DNA of 60,036 nucleotides, filler included, from Hausera hauseri (Eukaryota): the NCBI GenBank assembly GCA_046269625.1. It is 12 parts of 12 records of this genome, joined end to end, with 100 filler letters (N's around TTAATTAATTAA, not from the genome) between each part and the next. Parts side by side here need not be neighbours in the genome. Positions count along the whole stretch, not along the records: positions 8,483 to 14,056 come from JBJURY010227741.1; 11 more parts are not named here. One strand, given 5' to 3'. The notes beneath the pieces were generated by a model. It made no database searches and was not told where the DNA came from. It saw only the letters and a program-made list of their open reading frames with translations. Below, piece after piece: positions 11,474-11,924 of the stretch. Both the position numbers and the translations under genes were made by a program. The number at the start of each line of letters is the position of its first letter. The stretch's first letter is position 1.

Positions 11474-11924
11474 ATGTTAGCTAAAATCAACTATCGCGGA
11501 AATGTTACCGATTGACATTAACACACTACCTTTTAATCAATGGAAGCCGAGGCAGTATGTACTCAAGTGTCCACCGGATTTTACATGCATCGTATTTCAA
11601 TCGGGAAAGTGTCGTAATATGGGCTGTCGCAAACCAATCACAGCTGATAAACTACTGCCATTCGGAATTAGCATTGACCACATCCAATCAATAACGGTAA
11701 CGACTCAGTTAGCAGTGGCTACTACGGAATTTACGTATGAAACCGAACTGTTTTCTGCACTGAGACTGACATTGTTTCGCCCGCTTTGTGTCAATGTGTT
11801 TAGCACTAGAAAAATTGTTGTATTCGGTATTCGGACAGTGGAATATGAACCGATTATTAATCAAATTAAAATCCACATAAACTTTTTAGTGAACCAAAAT
11901 AATGTACTCTGCACAACAAACTAA
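11474..11924 (+). pseudogene. TATA-box binding protein (TBP)-like
   Basis: TCIVFQSGKCRNMGC (repeat 1) and IQSITVT...FTYETELFSALRL...VNVFSTRKIVVFG (repeat 2). Probable frameshift near the start and a short deletion relative to copy 1. Confidence 0.82.

Follow-up and report, generated by a model that had tools for sequence, protein, structure and literature searches.

Two TBP-like genes and their neighbours in the window

The DNA analysed here (the window) is a stretch of 60,036 nucleotides from Hausera hauseri that consists of twelve contigs of 4-6 kb each, with N-spacers between them. Its content is mostly pieces of Ty3/gypsy-type retroelements, with viral fusion genes on some. Judged by these elements, the host is probably an invertebrate animal. 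Because the window is made of spacer-joined contigs, its two TATA-binding protein (TBP)-like genes lie on two separate contigs, A (8483-14056) and B (4345-8382), which have a 2,666-nt block in common at 80% identity. The original prediction of two intronless, two-repeat TBP-like genes, each head-to-head with an A32-type packaging ATPase, was confirmed for copy A at 11474..11924 (+ strand) and copy B at 7250..7728 (- strand). Both scored above the Pfam TBP (PF00352) cut-off of 22.9 bits, with 25.5 bits for copy A and 37.3 bits for copy B, and both repeats were present in the structural model. Copy A matched the family HMM at 7e-40.

The two TBP genes are identical at 389 of 451 nt and both are pseudogenes. 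In copy A the reading frame shifts by 2 nt near 11512, an in-frame gap of 30 nt lies near 11709 and the core motifs are altered; in copy B, codons 9 and 130 are stops, which were read through as X to give protein P0001. The ATPases and the integrase of the window are likewise broken. Neither TBP gene is intact and the window copies themselves are dead. The two motifs said to be retained were so only in part: YEPELFPAL is kept in copy B and reads YETELFSAL in copy A, and F.SGK is exact only in the first repeat of copy A (FQSGK), the equivalents being FSTRK in its second repeat and FQSEM and LSSGK in copy B.

On contig A the ATPase, of A32/FtsK type and with an internal deletion, lies at 10865..11380 (-) and matched its family HMM at 1e-53; an intact relative scored above the Pox_A32 cut-off. 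Next to it is a retroviral-type integrase at 9758..10778 (-), recognised by Pfam rve and spread over three frames. These two broken genes are the Polinton markers of the contig. Two further broken genes at 8512..9743 (-) matched family HMMs at 1e-10 to 7e-26 and gave no match in the Pfam search; from their position and their similarity to relatives they are putative minor-capsid (penton)-like genes. The + strand beyond TBP A carries a broken SSB-like gene of T7 gp2.5/Enc34 type (12315..12671, by family HMM), a dUTPase (12791..13180, Pfam dUTPase 1e-20) and a Polinton gene conserved among relatives (13348..13839), which we take to be DEDD-like from its motif. On contig B, sequence comparison placed an ATPase copy with frameshifts and stops, cut by the contig end, at 7832..8382 (+) and a copy of the presumably DEDD-like gene at 5398..5907 (-), and family comparison placed an SSB-like gene at 6526..6912 (-). 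The DEDD-like gene had no match in the Pfam search. No MCP, pPolB or protease was recognised within the truncated contigs A and B, and no element terminus with inverted repeat or target-site duplication was recognised, by eye at the outer ends or by self-BLAST.

The window pattern of upstream elements was a YATAAAC box ahead of both ATPases and the DEDD-like gene of copy B, and canonical TATA ahead of both TBPs and the dUTPase. The boxes lie at 11417..11423 (-) for ATPase A, at 7780..7786 (+), 51 nt ahead of the start, for ATPase B, and 33 nt ahead of the ATG for the DEDD-like gene. The first of these sits in the head-to-head gap, which excludes that it serves a co-oriented gene further upstream as stop or poly(A) signal. 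Canonical TATA was matched by TATAAATA at 11443..11450 (+) ahead of TBP A, by two matches (starts 7764 and 7747) within 7740..7764 (-) ahead of TBP B, and at 12750 ahead of the dUTPase. Copy A has an extra YATAAAC at 11458, 15 nt ahead of the TBP ATG, where copy B has canonical TATA. Copy A carries TATAAAAA at the place where copy B has the box.

Elsewhere in the window, Ty3/gypsy-type elements were seen (26687-27439, 51896-52240, 1-4244 and 35069-41167), some contigs carrying Monjiviricetes-like fusion genes. Two contigs with a strong GC skew are copies of each other at 84% identity. The region 41715-46526 holds long same-strand ORFs interrupted by stops, with no Pfam match, and is possibly a gag-like or unusual retroelement region.

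Fold, family and selection

The fold of copy B was modelled from P0001 and the 117-row alignment. The model reached a pLDDT of 91.3 and matched solved TBPs in the PDB at TM 0.56-0.67 by Foldseek; among the matches listed, ranks 1-44 (E ≤ 0.001) were all TBPs or TBP-containing complexes. Identity to the solved cellular TBPs was 20-26%. The Pfam HMM and the structural model thus both agree with the prediction of a TBP. Intact relatives scored 40-67 bits against PF00352, and family TBPs are 145-175 aa long. The homologue search yielded 15 of 24 candidates, the best of them 71% identical and intact, and 395 proteins were found at E ≤ 1e-10 among 50%-identity representatives, where the lower ranks include cellular TBPs and are not all family members.

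Among 60 intact ORFs, dN/dS was 0.05-0.59 in all 73 usable pairs (dS 0.03-1.5), and judged by these ratios the family is under purifying selection. Copy A against copy B gave a dN/dS of 0.131/0.333, as expected for selection and then decay. In a 70-protein tree, whose rows did not include animal TBP and TRF2, the 44 family rows formed one side of a 100/100 branch, with plant-like, fungal, archaeal and other TBPs on the other side. In scans of viral contigs, no match was found to P0001 or to the alignments of the MCP and the ATPase; the TBP alignment returned one distant TBP with a canonical face. The sequencing-run search gave five holders with shares of 0.05-0.38, and no RNA holder among those listed.

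Genomic setting of the related TBP genes

Of 261 matches in a metagenome scan, 116 were confirmed and 80 loci kept. At least one Polinton core gene was present in 37 of the 80 loci, and in 21 of 24 among those of at least 4 kb; the 7 loci without any shared neighbour were all shorter than 1.7 kb. Five near-complete loci (L019, L025, L063, L072 and L078) carry the TBP together with pPolB, ATPase, integrase and capsid-like genes. Pfam families in TBP-bearing relatives included DNA_pol_B_2 in L063 and Peptidase_C5 in L048 and L092. The putative MCP of the relatives had weak matches (to Capsid_N at E 0.007, and through a link at 1e-4 to a protein of PF21738), and its profile found no match among PDB sequences. 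No viral RNA polymerase was seen in the Polinton loci with this TBP.

The ATPase-TBP linkage held up as common, but not in the divergent layout first described. Among the 27 related loci with both genes, the ATPase was co-oriented downstream in 24 and divergent, convergent and upstream in one each, and the head-to-head layout of the window is a local arrangement.

The most constant TBP neighbour was the SSB-like gene (cluster c2, in 22 loci). A model of the SSB-like protein of L019 matched T7 gp2.5 and Enc34 SSB with Z 8.1-8.4, and ASFV CP312R with Z 6.7. This conserved neighbour had been considered as a transcription partner, and that was rejected, its predicted fold being like SSB. By eye, clusters c17, c18 and c22 have terminal strands that look alike, and these clusters may represent additional SSB-like families. 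Tandem duplications were also seen beside the TBP, of the c11 and SSB-like pair and of the DEDD-like gene (L028 1097-2644; L071, L073, L077, L078).

The DNA-binding face is re-coded

Residues were counted in 117 rows relative to the plant-like TBP P0131, whose positions convert to yeast numbering by an offset of +41, and the DNA-contact residues were taken from Table 1 of PMC12529657. Three of the four intercalating Phe residues are kept, F116 and F190 in 117 rows and F207 in 116, the sole row without F207 being copy B. The fourth did not stand: at F99 the alignment has Pro in 112/117 rows, in a region where its register may be shifted by one position. Without an equivalent of F99, the protein might bend DNA less strongly.

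In the minor-groove face (N69, V71, V122, T124, N159, V161 and L205), N69 alone is kept (104/117). V122 is replaced by Arg in 116/117 rows, T124 by Met in 117/117, L205 by Asn in 117/117, N159 by Ser or Thr in 117/117, V161 by Thr or Ser in 115/117, and V71 by Asn in 86/117; outside this set, A101 is Gln or Met in 110/117. Because the new residues are near-invariant despite a family identity of ~20-70%, they point to selection for a different DNA target rather than decay. In plant and fungal TBP the G125-Q158 linker, the helix H2 stretch, is 32 aa long; it measures 20 aa in each of the window copies and 13-35 aa across the family, and the long H2 is absent from the model.

The TFIIB-binding surface, which the original prediction had singled out along with the Phe residues, is retained: the stirrup residues E186 and E188 are kept in 105/117 and 116/117 rows, and P191 in 103/117. 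The stirrup-TFIIB contact is described in PMC10005294, and a role of the acidic residues also in PMC12529657. On the strength of these two residues, family TBPs are predicted to contact TFIIB.

Putative promoter boxes of the Polinton genes

We counted ATAAAC within 100 nt upstream of gene starts in deduplicated sets, with expectations from dinucleotide shuffles. The box was present ahead of 23/23 ATPases (1.9 expected), 7/7 putative MCP, 11/13 c5, 5/6 c21, 3/4 protease, 10/12 PLA2 and 17/19 DEDD-like genes. It stood ahead of 9/15 mCP and 8/13 integrase genes and was missing in the other 6 and 5. From their gene type, we class the box genes as putatively late. TBP genes had the box in 4/52 cases (3.8 expected), SSB-like genes in 3/10 and c11 genes in 0/7. 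Canonical TATA was found ahead of 23/52 TBP genes (5.6 expected), the strict form being missing in 29/52, and TCAYW ahead of 46/52 (27.9 expected); the TATA-Inr spacing of TBP genes peaked at 30-32 nt.

Unseeded EM motif discovery in 117 upstream regions returned YATAAACR, on the sense strand in 98/117 and the antisense strand in 1/117. Its position was concentrated, with 53 of 110 sites 31-41 nt ahead of the ATG (12.7 if uniform). The base preceding ATAAAC is a pyrimidine in 95%, and therefore the box is not AATAAA. GTAAACA occurred in 1/117 upstream regions. In many cases the box extends over the end of the gene that precedes it, and in some over the stop codon of that gene. Directly ahead of the putative MCP in L019, L025, L040 and L043, it often lies inside the coding end of the preceding gene and is visible there as a conserved S-I-N-K peptide. 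A leucine-rich-repeat cargo gene (L027 1897-3327 and related loci) had the late box ahead in 5/5 de-duplicated cases.

Activities of such variants with cellular factors are given in PMC10005294. According to its Table 5, activity in Drosophila extract is <7% with C at position 7 (TATATACA) and ~17% with C at position 1 (CATATATA). In HeLa extract TATATACA kept ~50%, and TATAAACG gave 27% activity in Arabidopsis protoplasts. The YATAAACR box is a poor, not a null, site for host TBP.

Box occurrence in control loci

The control set comprised fifteen loci fetched by integrase or ATPase, disregarding TBP, and three contigs of a bacterial MAG (G001) indicated by the Pfam TBP search. Gene counts exclude L091 (distant integrase, non-Polinton layout) and L099 (2 kb, without a late-type gene). 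In the two control loci with a re-coded TBP, L092 and L093, the box stood ahead of 9/11 scored genes; the L092 TBP has H/W at positions 122/124. In the loci with a canonical-face TBP (L094, L106 and L107, plus the relative L095, a contig without TBP that was put with this lineage by integrase and ATPase) it stood ahead of 1/19 genes. The ten loci with no TBP seen had the box ahead of 1/43 genes and canonical TATA ahead of 9/10 ATPases; these contigs are partial, and the whole-record TBP search did not cover L082, L084, L086 and L090. Over whole loci, the observed/expected ratio of ATAAACA was 2.34 with re-coded TBP, 0.58 with canonical-face TBP and 1.28 with no TBP seen. L086 (9/3.6) and L090 (11/6.4) were above the ATAAACA expectation, though not upstream of scored genes.

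Where complete, the TBPs of L094, L106 and L107 (second half only in L107) have four Phe, V/I122, T124, N159, V161 and a full H2. Together with that of L099 and one unplaced protein they form a separate tree group (98/93), and because these canonical-face Polinton TBPs group on their own, there were probably either two acquisitions of TBP by Polintons or a single re-coding. All four contigs come from the bacterial MAG and are probably eukaryotic contamination.

By integrase and ATPase trees the controls represent about three lineages only, so that box and TBP could share ancestry without interacting. The contrast in box occurrence between loci of different TBP type is strong, short of proof by independent contrasts.

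Discussion

The window holds dead Polinton copies, and the compact re-coded TBP of their living relatives is likely to be the elements' own late-gene promoter factor. The original prediction of a viral basal transcription factor stands as far as a viral transcription factor is the most likely role; a general factor with a retained TBP surface does not fit, since the face is re-coded throughout the family and goes with a distinct putative late-gene box. In the proposed mechanism, host TFIID would first transcribe the early genes, the TBP gene among them. The viral TBP would then bind YATAAACR in the minor groove, its polar Arg/Asn residues tolerating or reading the C at positions 7 and 1 that is poorly used by host TBP. 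Most face changes fall in the N-terminal repeat, which in TBP contacts the 3' half of the TATA box, and the C7 of the box sits in that half. Through its stirrup the viral TBP would recruit host TFIIB and Pol II. TAF1, Mot1 and TFIIA contact the convex surface of TBP, and the short H2 may free the viral protein from these host partners. Virion genes would thus switch on only once TBP had been made. We lean slightly towards the wider reading that a large animal Polinton lineage runs an early/late cascade with a single 150-aa re-programmed TBP and YATAAACR as an orthogonal pair. Running on host TFIIB and Pol II, that cascade would be smaller than any viral late-transcription system known so far, and it would have arisen independently of herpesvirus vTBP.

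YATAAACR might instead be a real promoter element read by a host factor, either TBP/TFIID weakly or Forkhead, with the viral TBP doing a separate job. The 27-50% activity that C7 variants keep in plant and HeLa systems, the fit of ATAAACA to the Forkhead consensus site (RYAAAYA) and the few control lineages speak for this. We consider it unlikely, given the one-strand occurrence (98 against 1 of 117) at core-promoter distance, the scarcity of the usual Forkhead form GTAAACA, the <7% activity in Drosophila extract and the near-absence of the box where a re-coded TBP is absent. The decoy for host TFIID suggested originally, a small single-domain protein that would sequester host TFIIB or compete for host TATA boxes and so damp host (e.g. 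immune) transcription, would explain why E186/E188 were kept while one Phe and H2 were lost. Such a protein has no need of invariant new DNA-face residues (R122, M124, N205), and it leaves the co-occurring box unexplained; for these two reasons the idea is weaker and we hold it to be quite improbable.

Less probable again is that the box has a non-transcriptional or repressive use, in genome organisation, packaging or silencing of virion genes while integrated, or acts as a signal at the RNA level. Its frequent overlap with the end of the upstream gene would suit such a use, and activation and repression are both compatible with the sequence data; 31-41 nt ahead of the ATG is where a TATA element would be expected, however, and the kept stirrup fits initiation. 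An RNA signal is further opposed by the pyrimidine ahead of ATAAAC and by the window box in a head-to-head gap without a co-oriented upstream gene. Finally, a recent host TBP retrocopy inserted once, for which the missing introns and the two broken window copies might have spoken, is already refuted and has next to no probability left: identity to solved cellular TBPs is low, there are 395 proteins among the representatives, not all of them family members, the family forms a tree group of its own and evolves under apparent purifying selection, and Polinton core genes accompany nearly all of the longer loci.

The preferred reading, a late-gene promoter factor, has its closest likeness in beta/gamma-herpesvirus vTBP (KSHV ORF24, EBV BcRF1, CMV UL87, with a TATTWAA late box; PMC12529657). 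The two systems share the TBP fold, a non-canonical TATA-like box ahead of structural genes and host-like early genes, and Table 1 of PMC12529657 shows that ORF24 also has polar replacements at V122, T124, V161 and L205, although the substituted residues differ. ORF24 has 752 aa, is multidomain, works in a six-protein complex and binds Pol II directly (PMC12529657), whereas the Polinton protein is a bare core of 145-175 aa with a different box. In that account ORF24 has all four Phe but not the acidic residues for TFIIB (PMC12529657); the Polinton TBP is the opposite, with the stirrup kept and F99 lost. Because fold-level matches between the two are only weak (E 0.024-0.085), the likeness of factor and box is probably convergent. 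By its fold the Polinton protein belongs with the TBPs, though it is not a canonical one; by analogy it would work like a herpesvirus vTBP without being one, and the best reading is a one-protein late-gene switch with predicted binding.

Cellular TBPs (eukaryotic and archaeal; PF00352) share with the family the two-repeat saddle, three Phe, N69, P191 and the stirrup E186/E188, but F99, V122, T124, N159, V161 and L205 are replaced in the family and its H1 region, like H2, is shortened. Nucleocytovirus TBPs in BFVD (Heterosigma akashiwo virus, Terrestrivirus, EsV-1-53 and a B263R homologue) share the fold at E 1e-6 to 1e-3, with 9-19% identity. Many nucleocytoviruses with TBP encode their own RNA polymerase. 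An IMG/VR TBP (L001) has a canonical face and lies outside the Polinton family group. The second Polinton lineage (L094, L099, L106, L107) also carries a Polinton-borne TBP, unlike the re-coded family in its four Phe, V/I122, N159, V161 and full H2, and without the box.

A TBP label on an element of this kind has been published before. In the legend of their Fig. 5, Starrett et al. 2021 (PMC8502044) give that label to a gene on the map of a MELD virus, where the element has a PolB of adintovirus-like type. The label comes without discussion, the main text of that paper uses 'promoter' 0 times, and the one supplement examined has no TBP/TATA text (PMC8502044). In the literature searched, with subscription journals mostly outside its scope, we found no paper on Polinton TBP function, the family residues or the YATAAACR box, and the search for altered-specificity TBP mutants gave no match. 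The present analysis adds the residue-level parallel to ORF24, and it sets the family against Polintons in which no TBP was seen or the TBP has a canonical face.

The finding bears on whether animal Polintons act as autonomous viruses, and on how they would time the making of capsids when they have no RNA polymerase themselves. A dedicated factor-box pair would offer a direct test and would also help to mark virion genes, and where they start, in a sequence. If the reading is true, this would be a natural altered-specificity TBP that shows which saddle residues set TATA choice, with changes at the same saddle positions as in herpesvirus vTBP and the herpesviruses as an independent parallel, and Polintons would regulate virion production as autonomous viruses do.
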